Made by a program: the position numbers and the translations under genes. Shown piece by piece: positions 9,636-55,966 of a DNA stretch of 64,000 nucleotides; position 1 is the stretch's first letter; each line of letters begins with the position of its first letter. This DNA comes from a virus, in the UHGV virus genome UHGV-0038492; one strand, 5' to 3'. Below the pieces are notes generated by a model. That model saw only the letters and a list, made by a program, of their open reading frames with translations. It searched no databases and had not been told where the DNA came from.

Positions 9636-10214
9636 ATGTCGCAACCAACACAAGACGTGTCAGCCGCAATTCTTGACATTCTTATCCAAGCAGGGAACAG
9701 AAAGTTAAGTAAAGAGCAGTCCGAAGAACTGTCTAAGATTCTCAAAGACAACTTCGGTGATGATGTCTCTGTAGACGTAACGCGGTCGGGTACAAAGATT
9801 CTGTCGGAGCTACGCCCAACGCTTCTTGAGAACATTGGAAAGATGGCGGAAAACTTTCAGCAGCAAGCCACAAATGCTGTAGAGAGTTTAGGTGACGAAG
9901 TAAGCAAAGAAACGATGTTGACACTGTGGCCGAAACTTGCCGGTGCACAGAAGTTCATTATTGTTCTGCTTGCACTCGCCACTGTGGTCGTGACAGGCTT
10001 CTTAGCGTACGACACGCATCAGAACTATCCAACAGACAGTATGGAAGTGTTGTTTGTATCCTTACTTCCGCTGTTCGGACTGGTAGTATTTGCAACGTGG
10101 CCGATTAAAACGTTGGCTTACAAGTCGTTGGAGATTGCTACCAAAGTTGTCGAGAAGAAACTTGAGAAATCAGGTCAGGTCGTCGCGAAGACGGAAACAA
10201 AGACAACGAAATAA
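9636..10214 (+). CDS. membrane protein (two predicted TM helices)
   Basis: GGAGG RBS; hydrophobic segments FIIVLLALATVVVTGFLAY and LFVSLLPLFGLVVFATW; followed by terminator. Confidence 0.65.
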   Translation: MSQPTQDVSAAILDILIQAGNRKLSKEQSEELSKILKDNFGDDVSVDVTRSGTKILSELRPTLLENIGKMAENFQQQATNAVESLGDEVSKETMLTLWPKLAGAQKFIIVLLALATVVVTGFLAYDTHQNYPTDSMEVLFVSLLPLFGLVVFATWPIKTLAYKSLEIATKVVEKKLEKSGQVVAKTETKTTK

Positions 10215-26436: not shown

Positions 26437-26967
26437 GTGATAGCACGACTTGTGGGTTGGTTTAAGCAACGTCGTGCAAAGGCGGTCGAATGGCCGCCTA
26501 TTACGCATGACGAGAAAGTGGCTCTTTTTTTGGGGTATAACAAAGACTTGGGGAGATTAGGCGAGTTAATGCACTTAACGGAACGCCAGGTTTTTGCTAA
26601 GATTTCGAGCAGCGAGTTGCGTAAAGAAGTAATTCCCCACCTATCCTTTTTAGGGCAGGTTTATGCAAAGACGACAGAGGAATTTTTATCAACCCAAGGT
26701 AGCGAACGGCCACATATTCGGTTTTCCGTCGTAGGTGAACCTGATACGGTAGGTGAAATCGATTTTAAGATGCTGTATCGCAGAATAAAAGATGATGGGT
26801 TTATACATGTTAAACGATTATCAGAAACTTCTGTGGTGATTTATCATCGCACTGATCAGGATTTGTTAGGGTGTGTTATAAAGCTATCAAATTTACATAG
26901 TTTTTACGTTGATTTACTTACGGACTTTTATCCAGAACCTTGGTGCTTTATAGATGAAAATAAATGA
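26437..26967 (+). CDS. hypothetical protein
   Basis: 176-aa ORF with GTG start. Confidence 0.55.
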   Translation: MIARLVGWFKQRRAKAVEWPPITHDEKVALFLGYNKDLGRLGELMHLTERQVFAKISSSELRKEVIPHLSFLGQVYAKTTEEFLSTQGSERPHIRFSVVGEPDTVGEIDFKMLYRRIKDDGFIHVKRLSETSVVIYHRTDQDLLGCVIKLSNLHSFYVDLLTDFYPEPWCFIDENK

Positions 26968-27166
26968 CGGATATATCATTTCAGCAATCGTTTCAACTGC
27001 GTTGATTGTAGCGATGTTGATGTTCTACGTTAAGACGTCTGACGAATCACGTAGAGACTCCCTTTATCGTGAATGTATGTCAGGCACTACTGTAGATAGC
27101 CCACGTTACGCTGAATTAGTAATGGCGTGTACGGAATACGCTAATCGAATGGGAGGAGGGAAATGA
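26954..27166 (+). CDS. small membrane protein (single N-terminal TM helix)
   Basis: 70 aa; IISAIVSTALIVAMLMFYV hydrophobic helix; paralogous to next ORF. Confidence 0.5.
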   Translation: MKINDGYIISAIVSTALIVAMLMFYVKTSDESRRDSLYRECMSGTTVDSPRYAELVMACTEYANRMGGGK

Positions 27167-27360
27167 AAATTTGGTTGCCGATTGTAGTTTTTATCGTTAT
27201 TGCAGGGGCTTTAGCGAATGCCGAGTACGACTCTCGTACTTTAGAAACGAAACGTGAATTGTACCAGGACTGTATAAAGGATTATACACCGGGCACAGAA
27301 CTTCATGCGCAAGCTGTAAAAAGCTGTGCGCTGATGGCTGAATCGCAGACTCGTTCCTAA
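27163..27360 (+). CDS. small membrane protein, tandem paralog
   Basis: 65 aa; WLPIVVFIVIAGALA helix; shares RxxLYxxC...C pattern with the previous ORF. Confidence 0.5.
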   Translation: MKIWLPIVVFIVIAGALANAEYDSRTLETKRELYQDCIKDYTPGTELHAQAVKSCALMAESQTRS

Positions 27361-47325: not shown

Positions 47326-48174
47326 ATGTCTCTTACGTCAAAACAGAAACTGCTAAAACTCATCAACACTGAAAACAATATTATTCCACCGTTGACTTTC
47401 AGTGATGTTGAAATCGGGGAACCTACCGGTACTGGGGTTGATACCCAGGTGGTTCTGACCTCTAAACTTAAAGGCGATGAGTCTACTACTTTAACAGTGA
47501 CTTACCACCGTCGTAACTTACCTGACTACCTAACCGGTGAGTTGGTATTCGGTAACGACAGTGTGGTAACCGCATCAGATTTGCTTAATGCGATTAACGC
47601 AAAATACAACCTAAATATTTTACCCTCGGATATCGTTGACGCAAAAGTTGAAGGCGAAACCCATCAGCTTACCGCTAACGAGAAATCTTACGAGTGGTGC
47701 GGTGTAGTAACGCTTACGCTGCGCGATCCTATTGACCTGACTGAACTGTTACCGGTTACTCAATTAGAGAATCTGGTAGAGTATCCGTCCACGAAGAAAG
47801 GTAACGCGGCGGTTTATTCTCACCCGATTGATTTCACCGCAGAAAAAGATTACCTTGACCCGATTACTATCAACGACGCTGTAGACTTGGTAGAATTAGC
47901 TACTAAACTGGATAGCGTCGTTGACGAGAAATGGGTAAGCGTACCTAAGAACGCGGCTAACAACCTGTACGGAGCGAAGATTATTTACGATGGTCCAACC
48001 GCAGGTTACGAAGGCGCAAATACGAAGTTCACTCGTGTGTTGGTGCTAACACTCAGCCCGCTGTGTTCTAACCTGACCGGTAACCTGTTAATTCACTTTA
48101 ACGGGACCGATCGTCCGAAGTCGAAGATTGAATTAGCACAGACTAATCCGGTCTTACCGGGATTCTTAGATTAA
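47326..48174 (+). CDS. hypothetical protein, fibre-associated small-protein family (extended)
   Basis: 282 aa; contains SDLLNAINAKYNLNILPSDI matching the family motif. Confidence 0.65.
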   Translation: MSLTSKQKLLKLINTENNIIPPLTFSDVEIGEPTGTGVDTQVVLTSKLKGDESTTLTVTYHRRNLPDYLTGELVFGNDSVVTASDLLNAINAKYNLNILPSDIVDAKVEGETHQLTANEKSYEWCGVVTLTLRDPIDLTELLPVTQLENLVEYPSTKKGNAAVYSHPIDFTAEKDYLDPITINDAVDLVELATKLDSVVDEKWVSVPKNAANNLYGAKIIYDGPTAGYEGANTKFTRVLVLTLSPLCSNLTGNLLIHFNGTDRPKSKIELAQTNPVLPGFLD

Positions 48175-48187
48175 GAGGATTACAGTA

Positions 48188-48667
48188 ATGGCCAATCAAG
48201 AAACTATCTTCGACCTTATTAAAAAGGCTAACCCGGACGCTGAGTTCGACACCACCAAAGTCACACTGGGTGAACCGGTTGTGACCACCGGTACTTACAA
48301 TACCGAAATTACGGTTGCGTCGATTAAGAATCTCGGTTATGTTAATAAGCAAACGTTCCAGTATAACCGCATTGACGCAGGTTTGTATTTCCTGAACGTA
48401 TTACCGAAATTGTTGGTAGAATCTGCAACGACTACCGCTGACTTACTGCCCGTCATTAACGAGCAGTACAGCCTAACCCTTACAGAAGACGACGTGTGGG
48501 TAGAACAGGTTGGTGAGTTACCGTTAGACGGTAGCGCAATCGAACACGGTATTTTCTTCCGTCCTGAGTGTCTGACCTGGGTTGGTGGTTTTACAGTGCG
48601 TGTTGCGCGTAAACCGGCTGACGCCACACCGCCAAAGACGGCGTCTCGCGCTAAAAAGAAAAAATAA
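48188..48667 (+). CDS. hypothetical protein, same family
   Basis: 159 aa; ADLLPVINEQYSLTLTEDDV motif; Lys-rich C-terminus; terminator downstream. Confidence 0.6.
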   Translation: MANQETIFDLIKKANPDAEFDTTKVTLGEPVVTTGTYNTEITVASIKNLGYVNKQTFQYNRIDAGLYFLNVLPKLLVESATTTADLLPVINEQYSLTLTEDDVWVEQVGELPLDGSAIEHGIFFRPECLTWVGGFTVRVARKPADATPPKTASRAKKKK

Positions 48668-48671
48668 TCAC

Positions 48672-48706
48672 AGGGTGGGGTAATCCCCACCCTCTTTTCT
48701 TTTTTG
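48672..48706 (+). terminator. intrinsic terminator
   Basis: AGGGTGGGG-TAAT-CCCCACCCT then T-run. Confidence 0.75.
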
Positions 48707-48729: not shown

Positions 48730-49320
48730 ATGGCCGAACGTTGGACTAAAGAAGGTATTATTGAATCCAAAACCGATTTGGAAGGTGGGTACGTCAACGA
48801 CCCTGACGACAAAGGTGGAGAAACCTGTCACGGGGTAACACTGACAACTGCACGCGAATACGGGTACAAAGGAAGAATGAAAGATCTGACCCGTGCGCAA
48901 GCGTTTGACATTTACGATCGTGGTTGGTGGAAGAAACTTAAACTCGATGAGATTTTCGCTATCTCGCCGATACTCGCCGACCGGATGTTTGATTTTGCTA
49001 TTAACTCTGGCCGTGTTAACTGTGTGAAGTCATTACAACGTATTCTCAACGTTTTAAATAACGAAGGGAAACTTTACGCAGATATTGACACCGACGGTGG
49101 TATGGGACCTAAAACACTAGGTGCTCTGAATGCTTATCTAAATTACCGTAAAGGCGAGGGATTAGGCATCTTAATCTTTGCGTTAATCTCACACCAGGTA
49201 ACCTACTACACGGAAATCTCCGAAAAGCGTAAGAAGAATGAAAAATTCGCTTACGGCTGGTACGGACGTGTGTACAGGGAAATGCCGGATTATGTAGTGA
49301 AGGCGGGGTTAGTAAAATGA
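48730..49320 (+). CDS. endolysin-like peptidoglycan hydrolase (GH108-type N-acetylmuramidase)
   Basis: N-terminal EGGYVNDPDDKGGETCHGVT matches the conserved GH108 signature (EGGYxNDPxDxGGxTxxG). Confidence 0.7.
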   Translation: MAERWTKEGIIESKTDLEGGYVNDPDDKGGETCHGVTLTTAREYGYKGRMKDLTRAQAFDIYDRGWWKKLKLDEIFAISPILADRMFDFAINSGRVNCVKSLQRILNVLNNEGKLYADIDTDGGMGPKTLGALNAYLNYRKGEGLGILIFALISHQVTYYTEISEKRKKNEKFAYGWYGRVYREMPDYVVKAGLVK

Positions 49321-49421
49321 ATTGGTTTGCTAAACTCTTAGCGTTATTGTGGAAAGCGTTAACGTCTGGTCGAAAACGTAAAGACGAAAAACGTGGGCAA
49401 GAATTCTTCTGGTTTTTGTAA
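49317..49421 (+). CDS. 34-aa amphipathic peptide (possible lysis accessory)
   Basis: ATGA overlap with endolysin stop; MNWFAKLLALLWKALTSGRKRKDEKRGQEFFWFL; too short for the ORF track. Confidence 0.3.
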   Translation: MNWFAKLLALLWKALTSGRKRKDEKRGQEFFWFL

Positions 49422-49436
49422 GGAAAGGTGTGGGTA

Positions 49437-50102
49437 ATGGAAAAGCTTCAATATAAACGTTTAGATGATAAGTGGTTTGTATTAACGGAGGATTACCATT
49501 ATCCGTTTACGTTACGTGAGATTTATCACGACCACGTACACTTAGACCGTGCGGTTTATTTAACCGGTGTATTACCTGACACGCAACTGTGGTTAACCGC
49601 TCCGAAAGGGTTCGTAACGGACTTAGCGTCGATACCCGAACACTTACAGGGAATTTTCCATCCTGACGGGCCTTGGGCACCGGCTGCGTGTATTCACGAC
49701 TTGTTATACCAGAAATGCAGTACGGAACGTAGCTACCCTATGACGCCCGGTGGAAACGTTTCTCGCATTATCGATAAAGAGTTCGCTGACTTAACGTTTC
49801 TGCGTATTATGCAGTCGTTAGAAATCTCACCGTATATCTGCCAAACGTTTTATAAAGCCGTTGTAGGATTCGGTTGGGATGCTTACGTAGACCCTAACGC
49901 GAAACCGTCTTATACCACTAACGACTACCGTACGTTAGATTACAATCGAAACTATTTGTTCGTTCGCGAGTTTAAGGAGCCTGCTATTCCTGACCACGAA
50001 CGAGTTGATATCACCACAGGTTGTCCCGTTAATGTCAAATACCTGAACATTAAACGGGCTTTTCTGTCTGGGAGGGAAGATGTTTCATCCAAATCCGAGT
50101 AA
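49437..50102 (+). CDS. hypothetical protein (DUF1353-like, tentative)
   Basis: AAGGAAAGG RBS before ATG 49437; segment GFVTDLASIP resembles DUF1353-type phage proteins. Confidence 0.55.
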   Translation: MEKLQYKRLDDKWFVLTEDYHYPFTLREIYHDHVHLDRAVYLTGVLPDTQLWLTAPKGFVTDLASIPEHLQGIFHPDGPWAPAACIHDLLYQKCSTERSYPMTPGGNVSRIIDKEFADLTFLRIMQSLEISPYICQTFYKAVVGFGWDAYVDPNAKPSYTTNDYRTLDYNRNYLFVREFKEPAIPDHERVDITTGCPVNVKYLNIKRAFLSGREDVSSKSE

Positions 50103-50595
50103 CTTTAAAATCAAAGAGTTAGTACCGCAATCGTACATCACCAAATACGGTGATTCTGCAATTCGGTTTATGAACCCGCTGTTAATGATTTCGCTACAGC
50201 AGATTCGTAACCGTTTCGGCAGAATGGTAATTAACTCGTCTGCTGCGCAACAACGTGGTTTAAGAACCTTAGACTTTTTCATCAACCAAGAAAAGCCTAA
50301 GGGTGGTAACTATAAACAACGTGCTTTACAACTCTATTCCGATTCAGGAAGTCAGCACAAGTTCGGTAACGCGTTCGACGCAACATTGTTAGATTCAACG
50401 GTAAAACAAGTCCACGATTACATCGCCGCCAATCCTGATGAGTTTCCGTTTATTCACTTTATTGAATGCGACATCAGTTGGTTACATATCGATGTTCGTA
50501 ACCAACCGAATATCACGTTCTGGTCACCGAATCGGGGTACTGTGAAAGTCGCGAAACAAAGCCCTATCGATTGGAGCGCCTTAGTTAAAATCTAA
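50080..50595 (+). CDS. peptidase M15-like (LAS-type zinc peptidoglycan peptidase)
   Basis: SQHKFGNAFD fits the SxHxxGxAxD zinc-binding motif and a later WLHID provides the second His. Confidence 0.5.
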   Translation: MFHPNPSNFKIKELVPQSYITKYGDSAIRFMNPLLMISLQQIRNRFGRMVINSSAAQQRGLRTLDFFINQEKPKGGNYKQRALQLYSDSGSQHKFGNAFDATLLDSTVKQVHDYIAANPDEFPFIHFIECDISWLHIDVRNQPNITFWSPNRGTVKVAKQSPIDWSALVKI

Positions 50596-50679: not shown

Positions 50680-50718
50680 ATAAACCTACCCTCCTGCTTA
50701 GCAGGAGGGTATTTATTA
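50680..50718. terminator. bidirectional terminator between convergent genes
   Basis: ACCCTCCTGC-TTA-GCAGGAGGGT flanked by A-rich and T-rich tracts. Confidence 0.7.
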
Positions 50719-51195
50719 TTCTACCGGGTGCAGCATAGTGCCGGTATCTGGAATGCTGCCTTCGTGACATCTGAAGAACGTTACACCTTTACCTTCACCT
50801 GTTTTGTAGTTGATGGTAGAATACGCAAACGTTGGGGTTTTCGACAGTAACCCGTTTACACGGTAATAGCGCTCACCGGTAACAACGTTTAAGTTACCGT
50901 CCACTTTACCTAACAGGTCTTTATAAAGTTGCGGAGATTCAATTTTACCTTCGTCCCATGTAGCGACCCAATTCGCTCCTGTATCCATGACTAACACCGA
51001 AAGGGGCATCAGTTTTAGGCTAGACGGTACCGGTTTAAAATCAGCGAATTCTTGAGAAGCACCTGTACAGGTGTAAATGACCATATCGTGTTGGTCAACA
51101 GGTACGGTGGAGAACTGACCTTCTGCGTTCGGCTGAATAGCACAACTTGCCAATGTCATTACAAAAGCAACGACCACGAGAATGCGTTTTAGCAT
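50716..51195 (-). CDS. lipoprotein (signal peptide with lipobox LASC)
   Basis: AAGGATGAG RBS before ATG at 51195; MLKRILVVVAFVMTLASC; lone minus-strand gene between two plus-strand blocks with terminators on both sides. Confidence 0.65.
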   Translation of the reverse strand: MLKRILVVVAFVMTLASCAIQPNAEGQFSTVPVDQHDMVIYTCTGASQEFADFKPVPSSLKLMPLSVLVMDTGANWVATWDEGKIESPQLYKDLLGKVDGNLNVVTGERYYRVNGLLSKTPTFAYSTINYKTGEGKGVTFFRCHEGSIPDTGTMLHPVE

Positions 51196-51334
51196 AATCT
51201 CATCCTTATTAAAATTAAGAAAAATTAATTTTTTCAGGTTAGCGCTTACTGCCAACCGTCATATCTATATTTTAGGAAATGTCTAAAATAACATTCTTAT
51301 GCAATCCACCCCTGCCACTTACGAGGTAAAAACG

Positions 51335-51871
51335 ATGGCTAAAGCCTTCAAACAGCAGCTCATCGAAGCTGTAATTGCTAAAAACTCAGAAACCGCTTCT
51401 AATCTGACGGTTGCTGATGTTGATTTTGGCGCTGTTGCTGAGTTCAGCGGAGACGCTGGCCGCAACACTAAAATTACCCTGACCGCCAAGGCAGAAAGCC
51501 AGAACTTCAAAGGCGAGAAAGAATTCCACTACATTCGTCTGGCTTCTCAAGACCTGATCGGTGCTAAAGCTTACGAACAAGCCGGTAGCCTCGATCTGGA
51601 AAACTCTGCCATTGTAACCAAACTGAACGAAGAAATGGTTACTAAAGGTTATGTCGATGACGAGTTTGCAGAGAGCGAACTGTCCATTGAGAAATCCGAA
51701 GGCGACAGCGGTGCTAAAGTTTACACTGTCAAAGTAAGCGAAGGTCACATCAAATTCCTGGCTGGTACCATTGCCACCTTCACTTATTCCAACCCAGCTC
51801 CTGAGAAGGTAGCACTGAGCGGTCTGGAAGGTGAACTTGATGGCTTCACTGCGCCGGGTGTCGGTGGCTAA
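51335..51871 (+). CDS. hypothetical protein, paralog 1 (C-terminal GELDGFTA motif)
   Basis: GAGGT RBS before ATG 51335; host-like high-expression codon choice; paralogous to ORF 51943. Confidence 0.65.
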   Translation: MAKAFKQQLIEAVIAKNSETASNLTVADVDFGAVAEFSGDAGRNTKITLTAKAESQNFKGEKEFHYIRLASQDLIGAKAYEQAGSLDLENSAIVTKLNEEMVTKGYVDDEFAESELSIEKSEGDSGAKVYTVKVSEGHIKFLAGTIATFTYSNPAPEKVALSGLEGELDGFTAPGVGG

Positions 51872-51942: not shown

Positions 51943-52473
51943 ATGGCCGCTACTAACCAGATGATGTTGGTCGCGCTTTATAATGCTGCTAACACTGAGC
52001 TACCGCATCAGATTACAGATAAAGAAGTGTCCTTTGGTTTGCCTGCTGCGCTGGAAGGCGAAGGTAAGAATACCAAAGTTACCATGACCGCACTACCGGG
52101 TTCTGAGAATTTCAAAGGCGAAATCGAACTGCATTACGATCGTCTGGAGCCAGGTGTTGTAGGACGGATTGAACTAACTGACGATCTGTCTCGCTGGGTT
52201 CAAGAAAATGAACTCCGTGCTTGGTTACAGTATTACATCAACAAAGTAAAACCTGACGACGCTATCGCACCAGGCGACGTTGTGTACAACACCGAAGACC
52301 AGAAAGACGAACATGAAAACGTCACTCTGCGTACCGTGACGTGCACCGTTACTGAAAAGAACCTCCGTTATAAACCAGGTGTAATGGCAACTTTCGTAAT
52401 TACACCGAAGGTTGTCGATAATCGTATTGACCTGGCCACCACCAACGGTGAGTTGGACGGCTTTACTGCTTAA
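51943..52473 (+). CDS. hypothetical protein, paralog 2 (C-terminal GELDGFTA motif)
   Basis: AAGGA RBS; shares TK(I/V)T(L/M)TA...ENFKGE and the C-terminal motif with ORF 51335. Confidence 0.65.
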   Translation: MAATNQMMLVALYNAANTELPHQITDKEVSFGLPAALEGEGKNTKVTMTALPGSENFKGEIELHYDRLEPGVVGRIELTDDLSRWVQENELRAWLQYYINKVKPDDAIAPGDVVYNTEDQKDEHENVTLRTVTCTVTEKNLRYKPGVMATFVITPKVVDNRIDLATTNGELDGFTA

Positions 52474-52554: not shown

Positions 52555-53226
52555 TTACAGCCCTTGCTCTAATGCAAACGCTTTAATTGAATCGTAATCA
52601 CGGGCTTCGGCCCAAGCTCTGACTTCTTTTTTCTGTTCCGTCATTGCCTGATGCAGTTGCTGGTCGCGTTGCACAATAGCACCCAGCAGTGTTTTGCACT
52701 GCTCTAACGTAAACGGTTCGATACGGGTGTTGTTGGCCGTTAACCAATACGCTGGCGCGGTTTCTGACTGAATATAACGACTCAGTGCTACCTGTGACTT
52801 CTCATCTGCCTGGAAAGTGAAATCACCCACTTGAATCTCGGCATACCGCGCATCCTGATAACGGAATTCCAATGCGCTTAGGATTTTCTGAACATCGGTA
52901 AAGATATACCGCACAGTGGAGCGTAAACCCGTACGAATCTCTTCCAGGTCAATTCCCAACGTGTCGTTAACAAAGTCTTTCGCTTTCTGTAACGTAAATC
53001 GTGCTTCGATTTCAGACATGTCGTAGTTACGCATTTGTTCCAATGCTTCACGATCGGACATCCCATCAATCAATTTATAGTGCAGTAACGCACAAAAACC
53101 CGTACGACCATGATCTTCGCTACCGATTTTTTCCATATAGTTACCATGGCGGTCAATCGGTAAATCGTGCTCAAAATAACGACGACGGATTTCTTCTTTC
53201 GTTAAGCCTTCACCAGTAGCAGACAT
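52555..53226 (-). CDS. hypothetical protein, last gene of the fibre/radical-SAM operon
   Basis: 223-aa ORF overlapping the upstream gene by 25 nt; terminator downstream. Confidence 0.6.
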   Translation of the reverse strand: MSATGEGLTKEEIRRRYFEHDLPIDRHGNYMEKIGSEDHGRTGFCALLHYKLIDGMSDREALEQMRNYDMSEIEARFTLQKAKDFVNDTLGIDLEEIRTGLRSTVRYIFTDVQKILSALEFRYQDARYAEIQVGDFTFQADEKSQVALSRYIQSETAPAYWLTANNTRIEPFTLEQCKTLLGAIVQRDQQLHQAMTEQKKEVRAWAEARDYDSIKAFALEQGL

Positions 53227-53774
53227 TCATCGTCTCCTTTAATCAATCCTAATTCGATTAACAGTTCAAAATCGATATGACGGAATCTTGTATCAAAATC
53301 CGATTCCCAATCGATGCGGATACCCTGGCACTCTTCTGATGTTAGCTCGGGAAAAATTACGGTATTAAATTTCTCACGCTCATCGTAAAACCCATCAATC
53401 GGTGAGTTCGGGTTACGCGTTGCGAAAATAGTAATACCAGGGAAAGATAATGCTAACACAGTGATAGATTCTGCGCTGGGCTCACTTAAAGAGCGGCGTA
53501 GAAACGCAATTTTGTGGCGTGGGAAGTCCAATACGCGTTCTTCAAACCCTGGATTACGTTTTTCGATTTCCGCTACCGACAGGTCAGTAAGTTCGGTGCA
53601 ATACATTGGGATGATTACAGTCACGCCGTGGCGAATCAGTAAACGTTTTACGTCATCGGTAAAATCTTCGCCGTTAATCATCACGTAACAACCGAACAGC
53701 TTACTGTTTTCCAGAAACTTATCCAGAAGTCGAATTCTACGCTTCGTAATATTGTTGATCAGAATTGGTTTCAT
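53202..53774 (-). CDS. hypothetical protein co-operonic with radical-SAM enzymes
   Basis: 190-aa ORF overlapping both neighbours. Confidence 0.6.
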   Translation of the reverse strand: MKPILINNITKRRIRLLDKFLENSKLFGCYVMINGEDFTDDVKRLLIRHGVTVIIPMYCTELTDLSVAEIEKRNPGFEERVLDFPRHKIAFLRRSLSEPSAESITVLALSFPGITIFATRNPNSPIDGFYDEREKFNTVIFPELTSEECQGIRIDWESDFDTRFRHIDFELLIELGLIKGDDECLLLVKA

Positions 53775-55059
53775 CTTTGGCTTCTCTTAATAATTTTTCC
53801 TTTTGGGCGCGTTCACGAACACAGCGTGGGCAATAACACATACTCGTGTCGTGGAACGCTTTTGCTGACGTCGTACCCATCTTCTGTTTCCAGTATTCCG
53901 CCACCATCAGTTTCGCTGTCGTCCACCCGCACTGACGTCGCTCAGCGTGATACGCTTTACGGTCTTCCAGTGTCCCTTCACCGTTTTCGTAAGAAGCCGC
54001 AGCGCAGCTACCACAAGCGTGTTTCATCGGACAACCTAAGCACGTCTCTGGATAGTTGGTATATTGTGTTTGAATCTCTTCTAACAATTTACCGTTGTCC
54101 AGGCTGACGAATTCCCGACCTACCAACTCAAATACCGCAGAACGTGATGTTACGGTTGACATAAAGCGATTGCAACCGAAGATCTTACGGTCAAAACCTA
54201 AACACGTCATGTGTGTTAATGTCCCACAGAACGGACGTAAACGTTCTGGGTTCAACCGCACCGTGTCATTATAAAGTAATTGATCACGCCAGTTCGGTTC
54301 CCAAATCGTATCGAAATCCAACCCTTCTGGGATGATGTGCGATAAGATATTACGTGGGTTGGTGTGTAATCCTTTCTCGACCCAATAATCAATCACATCC
54401 ATCATCTGCAATGCAATTGAAGTAGCCATCCCACGTGGCATAATGTCTTCGAAGGTTACGTTGCCGGAGATAGTTCCGCCACCAGTAATATCAATTAATG
54501 ACTTCATTCCGGCAGCATAGTACGGTAACGTTTCTAACGTAAAGGTCGCCTTTACGCCAAGCTCTGCAATGCCAACCTCTTTTAAGTAGTTATAGCCTCG
54601 TACTGCGGCTTCGTAAGAACCCTGGCGCGTCGTTGTAAAGATACGATAACGGTCATGGGACTCAGGTAAGCCGTCAATTGAAACCCCAACCGAAAGTTTG
54701 TCTTTCCAACGCTCTACGATCTCACGGTTCAACGGGCGATCTAACAACGTCCCGTTTGTGGAAATACTAAACATAAACGGCCGATTATGTTCTTTACACA
54801 ACTGCTCGGCGGTTTCAAATGCAGCCAGCAGCAACTTAGGCTGCATGAACGGTTCACCACCGATAATGTCAATAATAACTTCAACATTCGGTTCGTTTTT
54901 ATCGCGTTCAAAACAGGCGTGCAAGAAATCAACAATATCTGCCGCTTTGTTGTTACGCGGGTACTTACGTTCGTAACAATATTCGCAGTCCAGGTTACAC
55001 GAAAGGTTCGTTACAATCTGATACGTTAGCTGCTTAGGGAATTCATTTACCTGACTCAT
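53737..55059 (-). CDS. radical SAM enzyme with C-terminal SPASM-like Cys cluster (anSME/peptide-maturase-like)
   Basis: N-terminal CNLDCEYC (CxxxCxxC), GGEPFM SAM-binding motif, and C-terminal cysteines (CLGCPMKHACGSC...CYCPRC) typical of auxiliary Fe-S clusters. Confidence 0.75.
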   Translation of the reverse strand: MSQVNEFPKQLTYQIVTNLSCNLDCEYCYERKYPRNNKAADIVDFLHACFERDKNEPNVEVIIDIIGGEPFMQPKLLLAAFETAEQLCKEHNRPFMFSISTNGTLLDRPLNREIVERWKDKLSVGVSIDGLPESHDRYRIFTTTRQGSYEAAVRGYNYLKEVGIAELGVKATFTLETLPYYAAGMKSLIDITGGGTISGNVTFEDIMPRGMATSIALQMMDVIDYWVEKGLHTNPRNILSHIIPEGLDFDTIWEPNWRDQLLYNDTVRLNPERLRPFCGTLTHMTCLGFDRKIFGCNRFMSTVTSRSAVFELVGREFVSLDNGKLLEEIQTQYTNYPETCLGCPMKHACGSCAAASYENGEGTLEDRKAYHAERRQCGWTTAKLMVAEYWKQKMGTTSAKAFHDTSMCYCPRCVRERAQKEKLLREAKDETNSDQQYYEA

Positions 55060-55966
55060 TTGCCGCCCCTCTATTACGACCTGCCATCACTACGCGACGA
55101 ATATATTCGTACGCCTCTACACCGATAGAGAAGGCCAGTTGGTTACACCCGGATTCCAGTACGTTAGGTGCGTTCTGGAGCTGGTGCTCACCACCGTCTG
55201 CATTAATCCAGAGACTTTCGCTGCAAACGTTACACCCTTCTTCAAACACTTTACTTACCGTAAAACCACATTCACGACTGTTTACTACATTCAGTCGTTC
55301 AATGTTGTCCTGAACCCGATAGTAGCCGTAAATAAAGTTCATGACGTGGTCAGGTGATAAAGGCTTTGGCATTTTCGCATCTAAGAGTAACGTCATTGCT
55401 CGGAAACCGTAATGGTAAATCGCGCTGTGCAGCTGAATAATATCTTCATGCCAACGTTTATCCCCCAAACGGTCCCGTGTCAAGACACCCCAAGTCTGGA
55501 CATTATCCAGCTCGTAGATCGTTTCCAGTGCTTCGTAACAGCCTTCGTCAATAAAGCGCATAAATGGACGCTCAGACGACTTAAACCCATCGATGCTAAC
55601 GTAGACATTGTCAAACTGTTTTAGCAACGGGAGATGCGATTTACGCATCTTTAAGCCATTGGTATACAACTGGTGTTTGAGTTCTGGACGAATCACTTTT
55701 AATTCGTCAACAAACGCCTCAATTTTACGGGTTGCCAATAGTGGCTCACCACCCGTCCACTGAATTTCGGTAATGGTTGGATTAGCTTCCAGCGCTTCCA
55801 AAATTCGCTCACGTTGAAACTCTCGCGGAGAATCTTCACGATTCATGTAATAGGCTCCACCGCAGAAGCTACAATCCAGGTTACACTTGGACGTAGCGAC
55901 TACGGACAATACGGTGGGTTTATCGTATAAACGATTCGATAACCTTGGTTCTGCATTGGTTGTCAT
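55043..55966 (-). CDS. radical SAM enzyme, paralog of the 440-aa enzyme
   Basis: CNLDCSFC and GGEPLL motifs; C-terminal Cys pairs (CGFTVSKVFEEGCNVC...GC); overlaps downstream gene by 17 nt. Confidence 0.75.
   Translation of the reverse strand: MTTNAEPRLSNRLYDKPTVLSVVATSKCNLDCSFCGGAYYMNREDSPREFQRERILEALEANPTITEIQWTGGEPLLATRKIEAFVDELKVIRPELKHQLYTNGLKMRKSHLPLLKQFDNVYVSIDGFKSSERPFMRFIDEGCYEALETIYELDNVQTWGVLTRDRLGDKRWHEDIIQLHSAIYHYGFRAMTLLLDAKMPKPLSPDHVMNFIYGYYRVQDNIERLNVVNSRECGFTVSKVFEEGCNVCSESLWINADGGEHQLQNAPNVLESGCNQLAFSIGVEAYEYIRRVVMAGRNRGAANESGK

Follow-up and report, generated by a model that had tools for sequence, protein, structure and literature searches.

A candidate lysis operon of an SPN3US-related jumbo phage with two peptidoglycan hydrolases, a predicted phospholipase A2 and a disruptin-like peptide

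Described systems and the operon at 48730-50595

Phages of Gram-negative bacteria lyse their hosts in holin, endolysin and spanin steps, and the disruptin is one known alternative for the outer membrane. The lysis of jumbo phages is mostly poorly understood. In this work, a stretch of 64,000 nucleotides from the viral genome UHGV-0038492 was analysed (the window, always meaning this whole stretch), and the subject of the study is an operon on its + strand at positions 48730-50595. It codes for a predicted muramidase of family GH108, a 34-residue peptide (pep34), a DUF1353 protein predicted to be a phospholipase A2 (PLA2) and a predicted zinc peptidase of family M15. We favour, with somewhat better than even confidence, the reading that the block is a late operon for demolition of the host envelope, i.e., for lysis, in a jumbo phage related to SPN3US, and that it would supply three signal-less enzymes and a peptide to this end. 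A recognisable spanin is missing from ~15% of phages (bioRxiv 10.1101/515445).

The same families are found in the typhoid-toxin islet of S. Typhi (type 10 secretion system), where TtsA (GH108) and TtaP (DUF1353 PLA2) are encoded in one small cluster. TtaP, the product of the fifth gene of the islet, is a pure DUF1353 protein for which phospholipase A2 activity was demonstrated (Gartly et al., JBC 2024, PMC11525133), and it is the only characterised member of the family. It is a distant relative of the secreted PLA2s of group XIV. H70, D71 and D85 are catalytic, and the D85A variant is inactive (PMC11525133). A signal peptide is absent from both TtsA and the window GH108 protein, and no holin has been identified in either cluster, that of TtsA being described as "yet unidentified" (PMC13284979). 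On the other hand, the islet is a bacterial toxin locus in which ttsA and ttaP are expressed from different promoters (ttaP together with cdtB), whereas the window genes form one operon of a lytic jumbo phage with an M15 peptidase and a small peptide added. At 221 aa, the DUF1353 protein of the window is also longer than TtaP (125 aa), having additional domains at both termini. Toxin secretion did not depend on TtaP in an assay whose bile salts make the outer membrane permeable, and a perturbing action on this membrane is the role preferred by those who discovered the protein (PMC11525133). When overexpressed in E. coli, TtaP was assayed only after lysis, which would fit an enzyme that stays latent until membranes are exposed. 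The occurrence of the phage pair in an apparent lysis context supports the idea of the PLA2 as a late membrane disruptor and not as a factor for crossing the inner membrane.

In the canonical Gram-negative cassettes (lambda S, R, Rz/Rz1; N4), a set of envelope-degrading genes is likewise clustered and co-transcribed, and the cytoplasmic endolysin needs help across the inner membrane. These cassettes have a holin and spanins, whereas the window block has no transmembrane (TM) holin, no i-/o-spanin pair and no u-spanin, and contains two predicted peptidoglycan hydrolases together with a predicted lipolytic enzyme. A lipid-ester hydrolase beside the endolysin is also found in the lysis cassette of mycobacteriophages, where LysB breaches the outer lipid barrier after the holin and the endolysin (PMC5707550). 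LysB is a serine esterase acting on mycolyl-arabinogalactan, with another fold and in another type of envelope, whereas the DUF1353 protein would be a His/Asp PLA2 with a predicted glycerophospholipid substrate. The disruptin gp28 of phage phiKT (56 aa, cationic and amphipathic), which replaces spanins (bioRxiv 10.1101/515445), is similar to pep34 in size class, charge, amphipathicity and setting in a lysis cluster. Moreover, gp28 is particulate, and the SPN3US orthologs of the neighbours of pep34 are likewise present in particulate fractions. Pep34 differs in being shorter (34 aa) and coupled to the endolysin. Judged by these properties alone, gp28 appears to be the closest functional analog of pep34.

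Genes of the operon and their conservation

The gene structure, the coupling, the family and fold assignments, the conserved catalytic residues and the conservation across lineages are given in this section as they were observed. The genome is that of a jumbo phage with ~65-70% nucleotide identity to Seoulvirus (SPN3US, SEGD1, SPLA3), Erwinia phage pEa_SNUABM_29 and STsAS. The kinship of the window to Seoulvirus is seen only by distant blastn and tblastn matches, and a near-identity DNA search of GenBank phages gave no match to the window. Near-identical genomes of ~220-225 kb are present in IMG/VR (L011-L014, L016). The block is syntenic in many relatives, and the family matches of its open reading frames (ORFs) are far beyond chance. 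Gp156-gp159 of SPN3US and the corresponding blocks of Seoulvirus and Erwinia jumbo phages are direct orthologs in the same order with 54-78% amino-acid identity; in SPN3US, gp156 is the GH108 protein, gp157 the DUF1353 protein, gp158 the M15 protein and gp159 the lipoprotein encoded next to the operon. Because hairpins stand at both ends and the junctions are overlapping or closely spaced, the four genes represent one apparent transcription unit (Table 1).

The DUF1353 ORF as delimited mechanically starts with GTG at 49428 (224 aa), and homologs favour the ATG at 49437, which gives 221 aa and the same end at 50102. The match to DUF1353 (PF07087) in Pfam is above the curated threshold (E=1.4e-15, 57.1 bits versus a cut-off of 22.5). 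H87 and D118 do not vary across 56 diverse homologs, and D88 is kept in at least 90% of them. In a confident model, the best structural match is to group XIII/XIV PLA2, with a helical core like those of SvPLA2 (1LWB) and TbSP1 (4AUP); single-sequence searches of the PDB with the DUF1353 and M15 proteins gave no match, and fold searches were needed. The DUF1353 proteins of jumbo phages have an added N-terminal beta domain and a conserved C-terminal extension of ~70 aa. The pattern GFVTDLAS is specific to DUF1353 subfamilies other than that of TtaP. Furthermore, some bacterial homologs have N-terminal hydrophobic or lipobox-like leaders (rows P0072, P0078, P0096 and P0105), and these leader sequences are consistent with a target in the envelope. 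Judged by residues and modelled fold, the window protein is a predicted, and probably catalytic, phospholipase A2. It had been missed as such in the earlier reading and is a new lipolytic member of the putative lysis module. Since the catalytic residues and the fold of a validated PLA2 family are kept, DUF1353 is the most concrete candidate for the "unrecognised factor" on which, according to the earlier note, membrane access might depend. A literature search, incomplete in coverage, returned no paper tying a PLA2 to a phage lysis cassette.

The family has another name in the databases. The window protein matches PHROG 1158, "tail assembly chaperone", with E=1.3e-58, the name "tail assembly-like protein" has been copied through many GenBank records of DUF1353, and genes for tail fibres and DUF4376 proteins often neighbour it. 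The DUF1353 protein could accordingly be read as a non-enzymatic chaperone, and the block as a pair of endolysin genes separated by the gene of this unrelated structural helper. We consider this very improbable. No experimental basis for the chaperone label was found, whereas PLA2 activity has been demonstrated for TtaP, the founder of the family, the His and Asp of the catalytic site do not vary among the 56 homologs, and PLA2 is the best structural match of the model. In CR5-like phages, moreover, the DUF1353 gene overlaps the M15 gene with no tail gene between. The names "tail assembly chaperone" and "tail assembly-like protein" (phrog_1158; RefSeq/GenBank, e.g., NC_027402 ACQ60_gp109) appear to be a mis-annotation derived from gene position.

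The two hydrolases belong to well-described families. The first ORF (196 aa, containing EGGYVNDPDDKGGETCHG) matches Glyco_hydro_108 (E=1.6e-23, 83.5 bits versus a cut-off of 21.2) and, at its C-terminus, PG_binding_3 (E=5.2e-16, 59 bits versus 24.6), both above the curated Pfam thresholds, as well as PHROG 315 "endolysin" (E=6.7e-43). The nearest solved structures are 6V3Z (Sen1395, E=4e-43) and 6V40 (TtsA, E=6.5e-43), identities that were confirmed from the literature (PMC6996933), and the alignment spans nearly all of both proteins. The catalytic loop motif EGGY...D(D)xGG.T..G, present as LEGGYVNDPDDKGGETCHGVT, aligns with the same motif in both structures. On these matches, the product is a predicted muramidase endolysin of the TtsA/Sen1395 type. 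The last ORF (171 aa, with SQHKFGNAFD and WLHID) overlaps the DUF1353 ORF by 23 nt and matches PHROG 894 "endolysin" with E=4.3e-27. In Pfam, the window protein itself stays below the cut-off for Peptidase_M15_3 (14.8 bits versus 23.2, E=0.033), and 16 of 21 members of its family match this model (best 6.8e-08) and 12 match M15_4. The zinc triad H-x6-D...H and the Asp that follows (H93, D100, H136 and D138) are invariant in 20-21 homologs, and the protein model has the Zn DD-peptidase / LAS / hedgehog fold. A profile search against the PDB gave chance matches only. From motifs and modelled fold, the product is a divergent predicted M15 peptidoglycan peptidase.

Pep34 (MNWFAKLLALLWKALTSGRKRKDEKRGQEFFWFL) begins with an ATG that overlaps the stop codon of the muramidase (AAAATGA). 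It has a net charge of +5 and a helical hydrophobic moment of 0.47, and both Lys of the N-terminal helix lie on one face. Its most hydrophobic 15-residue window, Lys included, reaches 1.11, and by its sequence the peptide is too little hydrophobic to span a membrane. As with a disruptin, it is a small, cationic, amphipathic helical peptide amid putative lysis genes. It is intact in five near-identical metagenomic genomes with 3 amino-acid substitutions in all, and it was found only in the window clade and in Seoulvirus, where the homolog keeps the core NWF..L..A.W.AL...R[KR][KRQ][KR] and likewise overlaps the GH108 stop codon. Ordinary start/stop coupling was preferred to a frameshift that would fuse GH108 to pep34 at A-AAA-TGA, because relatives have GTGA or ATGA overlaps without a common slippery site.

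In the gap between GH108 and DUF1353, Seoulvirus phages have 2-3 tiny ORFs (~4203-4493 in L004, SPN3US JN641803; 4339-4629 in L001; ~4581-4847 in L002 and L003). These are mostly unannotated; the first codes for the pep34 homolog, another for a peptide in which the motif FFK.LRAIF occurs, and a further one for a peptide of 30 aa with a C-terminal TM segment. The window phage has a counterpart of the first alone, the other two being absent, whereas its PLA2 and M15 genes overlap, which is not the case in Seoulvirus. In Machina-like phages of Erwinia (L017-L022), the further tiny ORFs are fused into a single C-tail-anchored TM peptide of ~40-55 aa.

Most of the earlier description of the block is confirmed. 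All four ORFs that it listed are present on the + strand at their coordinates; the call of a GH108 muramidase agrees with the Pfam, PHROG and PDB matches and the motif, and that of an M15/LAS zinc peptidase with the invariant triad, the LAS fold and PHROG 894. The 34-aa amphipathic, ATGA-coupled peptide is borne out by overlap, charge and moment, and the 221-aa DUF1353-like protein by the Pfam match and the homolog-supported ATG.

Table 1. Features of the operon and its borders in the window
Coordinates	Strand	Feature	Basis and remarks
48672..48693		G+C-rich hairpin and T run, terminator-like on both strands	Stem of 9 pairs, 7 G-C, then CTTTTCTTTT; splits the upstream DUF7941 head-protein gene from the operon
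48730..49320	+	Predicted GH108 N-acetylmuramidase with PG_binding_3, TtsA/Sen1395-like endolysin, no signal peptide	Pfam, PHROG, PDB 6V3Z/6V40
49317..49421	+	pep34, 34-aa cationic amphipathic peptide coupled to the muramidase	ATGA overlap, charge, moment, homologs
49437..50102	+	DUF1353/TtaP-class predicted phospholipase A2, no signal peptide	Pfam, conserved residues, model
50080..50595	+	Divergent predicted M15 (LAS / Zn DD-peptidase fold) peptidoglycan peptidase, no signal peptide	PHROG 894, motifs, fold; 23-nt overlap with the PLA2 gene
50687..50711		Bidirectional terminator-like hairpin	11 pairs, 7 G-C, T runs on both strands; ends the operon and the convergent lipoprotein gene
50716..51195	-	Outer-membrane-type lipoprotein, lipobox LASC; module membership uncertain	Lipobox, synteny

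By comparing the lineages of SPN3US-like jumbo phages (Table 2), it was found that DUF1353 is paired with GH108, with M15 or with both, and it therefore represents the constant partner of interchangeable endolysin-type enzymes. Outside this group, DUF1353 is at times part of an evident lysis cassette: the DUF1353 gene of Fusobacterium phage FNU_1P lies between an L-Ala-D-Glu peptidase endolysin and a holin, and that of Pseudomonas phage Cygsa01 overlaps the endolysin gene. In Cygsa01, which is a large unrelated phage, a second lipolytic gene accompanies the endolysin: a gene for a GDSL-like lipase/acylhydrolase is located two genes upstream of the DUF1353/endolysin pair (L008 1301-4222).

Table 2. 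Composition of the block in related phages
Lineage	GH108	Small ORFs	DUF1353	M15	Lipoprotein
Window clade	yes	pep34	yes	yes (overlapping)	yes, convergent
Seoulvirus	yes	pep34 homolog and two more tiny ORFs	yes	yes	yes, convergent
Machina/Caitlin/Huxley-like Erwinia phages	yes	one TM peptide	yes	no	yes
CR5/Phobos/Derbicus-like phages	no	none found	yes	yes (overlapping)	no
Vibrio phage pVa-21	no		yes	no	no

Lysis, entry or an accessory function

Several observations weigh against a lysis role of the operon. The residues H87, D88 and D118 were equated with H70, D71 and D85 of TtaP through the shared Pfam model and not by direct alignment. The ttaP deletion in S. Typhi has no envelope phenotype, and TtaP is dispensable for toxin secretion in vitro (PMC11525133); PLA2 activity therefore need not be disruptive in vivo. 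In a census of 21-25 diverse viral DUF1353 loci, holins or lysozymes stood near some and tail-fibre domains near others by Pfam, and DUF4376 neighboured DUF1353 in 3 of 25 unrelated viral loci. Small TM neighbours of DUF1353 were not significantly enriched in the diverse viral loci (odds ratio 1.7, p=0.20). Since the census is mixed and the TM enrichment is not significant, no general association of DUF1353 with lysis cassettes is claimed. An envelope-related cluster ~40 kb away, described below, could be the main lysis system. Finally, the block lies amid head-protein genes (DUF7941 / Family B). Ali et al. 2017 placed SPN3US gp157 in the category "Head", at low copy in one preparation of wild-type virions (25% coverage, 4 peptides, 9 spectra, SC/M 0.37). 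It was missing from the 47(am1), 218(am101) and 244(am84) particles, which lack ejection-protein function, including gp47-minus ones and ones without the virion RNA polymerase (vRNAP).

These last points would fit an entry module: a few copies of the PLA2, and perhaps of the M15 peptidase, would be carried by each virion, either on the tail or in the head alongside the ejection proteins, and would open the host envelope at the onset of infection to let in the DNA and the virion RNA polymerase. Analogous entry enzymes are known from parvoviruses (the PLA2 domain of VP1) and from phage T7 (the gp16 transglycosylase). Gp158 was found with 2-7 spectra in several SPN3US preparations and with none in tailless particles, the extra N- and C-terminal domains of the jumbo-phage DUF1353 proteins could serve incorporation, and in small phages DUF1353 often follows tail-fibre genes. 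The idea of a PLA2 ejected from the head looked strong from the virion listing and was downgraded by the multi-sample Table S2 of Reilly et al. 2020, in which three wild-type-like purified virion/head preparations can be compared with two debris-containing fractions by counts of peptide-spectrum matches (PSM). Gp157 had 0, 0 and 0 PSM in the purified preparations and 14 and 25 in the debris, gp158 had 0, 2 and 4 versus 8 and 11, gp159 had 0, 0 and 0 versus 8 and 13, and gp156 had 0, 0 and 2 versus 3 and 2. The true head proteins gp154 and gp155 showed the opposite pattern (3-59 and 39-82 purified; 0 and 0 in debris for both), and the 12-copy portal reached 28-151 PSM in the same three purified preparations (Reilly et al. 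2020). Over all virion preparations, gp156 and gp158 had 0-7 PSM each, gp156-gp158 were highest in debris-rich or prohead fractions, and the SPN3US authors took gp158 as a non-specific contaminant. Furthermore, gp157 migrates at full length, no N-terminal A-x-E processing/targeting motif like that of the SPN3US internal head proteins was seen in it, and the DUF1353 gene is co-operonic and translationally coupled with an endolysin-type muramidase. Gp157, gp158 and gp159 thus seem to track envelope debris and not capsids, which favours a role in lysis over one in entry; enzymes that attach to the sacculus and to membranes during lysis should behave in this way. A search for virion proteomes of the Erwinia relatives in the literature was unproductive. 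We hold the entry module to be decidedly unlikely, and the suggestion of the earlier note that one hydrolase may be a virion enzyme for entry is weakened: gp156 is at trace level, gp158 is at trace level or inconsistent, and gp157, at 0 in the three purified preparations, is found mostly in debris.

Membrane segments were judged by the Kyte-Doolittle threshold and signal peptides by an N-terminal hydrophobic stretch. No ORF in 48730-50595 has a segment that reaches the TM threshold, and the GH108, DUF1353 and M15 proteins have no N-terminal hydrophobic segment or signal peptide; the three enzymes are therefore predicted to be cytoplasmic when made. No small protein with at least one TM segment, as would be looked for in a holin, was found within the block, and neither was an i-/o-spanin pair or a u-spanin. 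The sole lipobox protein nearby, that of the convergent gene, has no partner and no C-terminal TM segment. The Seoulvirus and Erwinia relatives do have a TM peptide of 30-55 aa at the position of pep34. For SPN3US, the RefSeq record has no holin or spanin annotated anywhere. By scanning the architecture of the SPN3US genome, an envelope-related cluster was seen ~40 kb from the block (L094, 171400-181000). It includes a series of tiny TM proteins, an SLT transglycosylase whose signal peptide is of the classic cleavable type, a 2-TM protein of 86 aa and, immediately after a protein with a TM segment at its N-terminus, a lipoprotein. Secreted paralogs are also found upstream in this cluster. The same cluster is present on the contigs of the window clade that carry the block (L185 7696-16366, IMGVR_UViG_3300045988_078609), outside the 64-kb window. 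Its members match PHROGs without a functional label or no PHROG, and a spanin reading of the TM/secreted pair is weakened because its second member has no convincing lipobox in the window clade. The statement of the earlier note that no multi-TM holin is visible between the hydrolases is accordingly right for the block, by the TM scan of all four ORFs, whereas a genome-wide lack of a holin is not established. A canonical holin/spanin set elsewhere, together with cytoplasmic hydrolases that are not associated with virions, had been named there as what would speak against its view; what was seen in SPN3US and in the window clade is a candidate cluster whose members are without functional family support.

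The distant cluster offers a further explanation, in which it would be the main lysis system and the operon an accessory that speeds or completes the breakdown of envelope remnants, for example, preventing the trapping of progeny on receptor-bearing debris or vesicles. Its presence in SPN3US and on the same contigs as the block, the cleavable signal peptide of its SLT enzyme and the physical association of gp157, gp158 and gp159 with debris would fit this. Moreover, GH108 was lost in one lineage and M15 in another, so each is individually dispensable. On the other side, no member of the cluster has functional PHROG support, a convincing lipobox is missing from the window-clade version of the o-spanin-like protein, and gp198, gp200 and gp205 were not detected and gp204 only in trace amounts in the SPN3US mass-spectrometry tables. 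GH108 enzymes of the same type act elsewhere as endolysins or secretion muramidases, and the retention of DUF1353 in all the lineages examined points to a function that is more than marginal. An accessory role is thus, in our judgement, unlikely.

Returning to the operon as a lysis operon, we infer its role, the order of events and the membrane attacked by the PLA2 as follows. The GH108 muramidase would cut the glycan strands, the M15 zinc peptidase the peptide stems or cross-links, and pep34 would be made by translational coupling with the muramidase. In the first step, the inner membrane would be breached by a factor other than a recognisable holin of this operon, for which pep34 or the membrane proteins ~40 kb away are candidates. 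The two hydrolases would then reach and dismantle the sacculus. In the third step, the PLA2 would gain access to phospholipid, most likely in the inner leaflet of the outer membrane and in the exposed inner membrane, and finally the lysophospholipids and free fatty acids that it releases would destabilise the last barrier. The PLA2 step would be the counterpart of spanins or the disruptin elsewhere, and of the lipolytic LysB in mycobacteriophages. The parts belong to known enzyme families, a conserved PLA2 and a disruptin-like peptide being the unusual ones, and the mechanism put together from them is plausible.

Neighbouring genes and implications

The lipoprotein encoded next to the operon has, in addition to the Cys of its lipobox LASC, two further invariant Cys (three in all). 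It is syntenic in Seoulvirus and Machina-like phages, and only 17 relatives were found among 1.8 billion representative proteins. There was no match in PDB or Pfam. Its identity as a lysozyme inhibitor or a Spackle-like protein was considered and had no sequence support; a periplasmic inhibitor or a superinfection-exclusion factor may be its role. Around the operon there are four DUF7941 paralogs on the + strand (47326-48174, 48188-48667, 51299-51871 and 51943-52473), which correspond to the "Family B" head proteins of SPN3US and to gp160 (>300 copies per capsid). Because these paralogs stand on both sides, the enzyme operon forms an island in a head-gene array. Further downstream, four ORFs on the - strand (52555-53226, 53202-53774, 53737-55059 and 55043-55966) code for a DUF4376-like protein, a protein without assignment and two apparent radical-SAM proteins, of which the first was checked, by similarity to SPN3US. 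This ORF group accompanies DUF1353 in every lineage examined, and in CR5-like and Machina-like phages it lies directly upstream on the same strand. Elsewhere in the window, two ATGA-coupled ORFs on the + strand (26954-27166 and 27163-27360) code for two small paralogs (70 and 65 aa), in each of which a TM segment at the N-terminus is combined with a short two-Cys domain; they have no PHROG match and no SPN3US homolog. The + strand ORF 9636-10214 codes for a conserved 192-aa protein with two C-terminal TM segments (phrog_8722), whose SPN3US ortholog (84978-85550) lies amid virion genes.

With a conserved PLA2 that shares its operon with interchangeable endolysins in several genera of jumbo phages, there is a concrete candidate for a lysis step of lipolytic kind. 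The "tail assembly chaperone" annotation of the DUF1353 family should be corrected. The combination of a muramidase, a peptidase, a PLA2 and a cationic peptide is also of interest for enzyme antibacterials against Gram-negative bacteria. Moreover, the phage context suggests the original joint job of the TtsA/TtaP pair and so bears on Salmonella pathogenesis. We tentatively put forward, as a possibility of lower standing than the lysis role of the operon, that the DUF1353 PLA2 represents a previously unrecognised class of phage lysis protein, which takes over or shares the outer-membrane step or helps endolysins to cross the inner membrane, and that TtsA/TtaP is its domesticated remnant. If true, this domesticated module would explain the role of TtaP and the passage of the toxin through the outer membrane.

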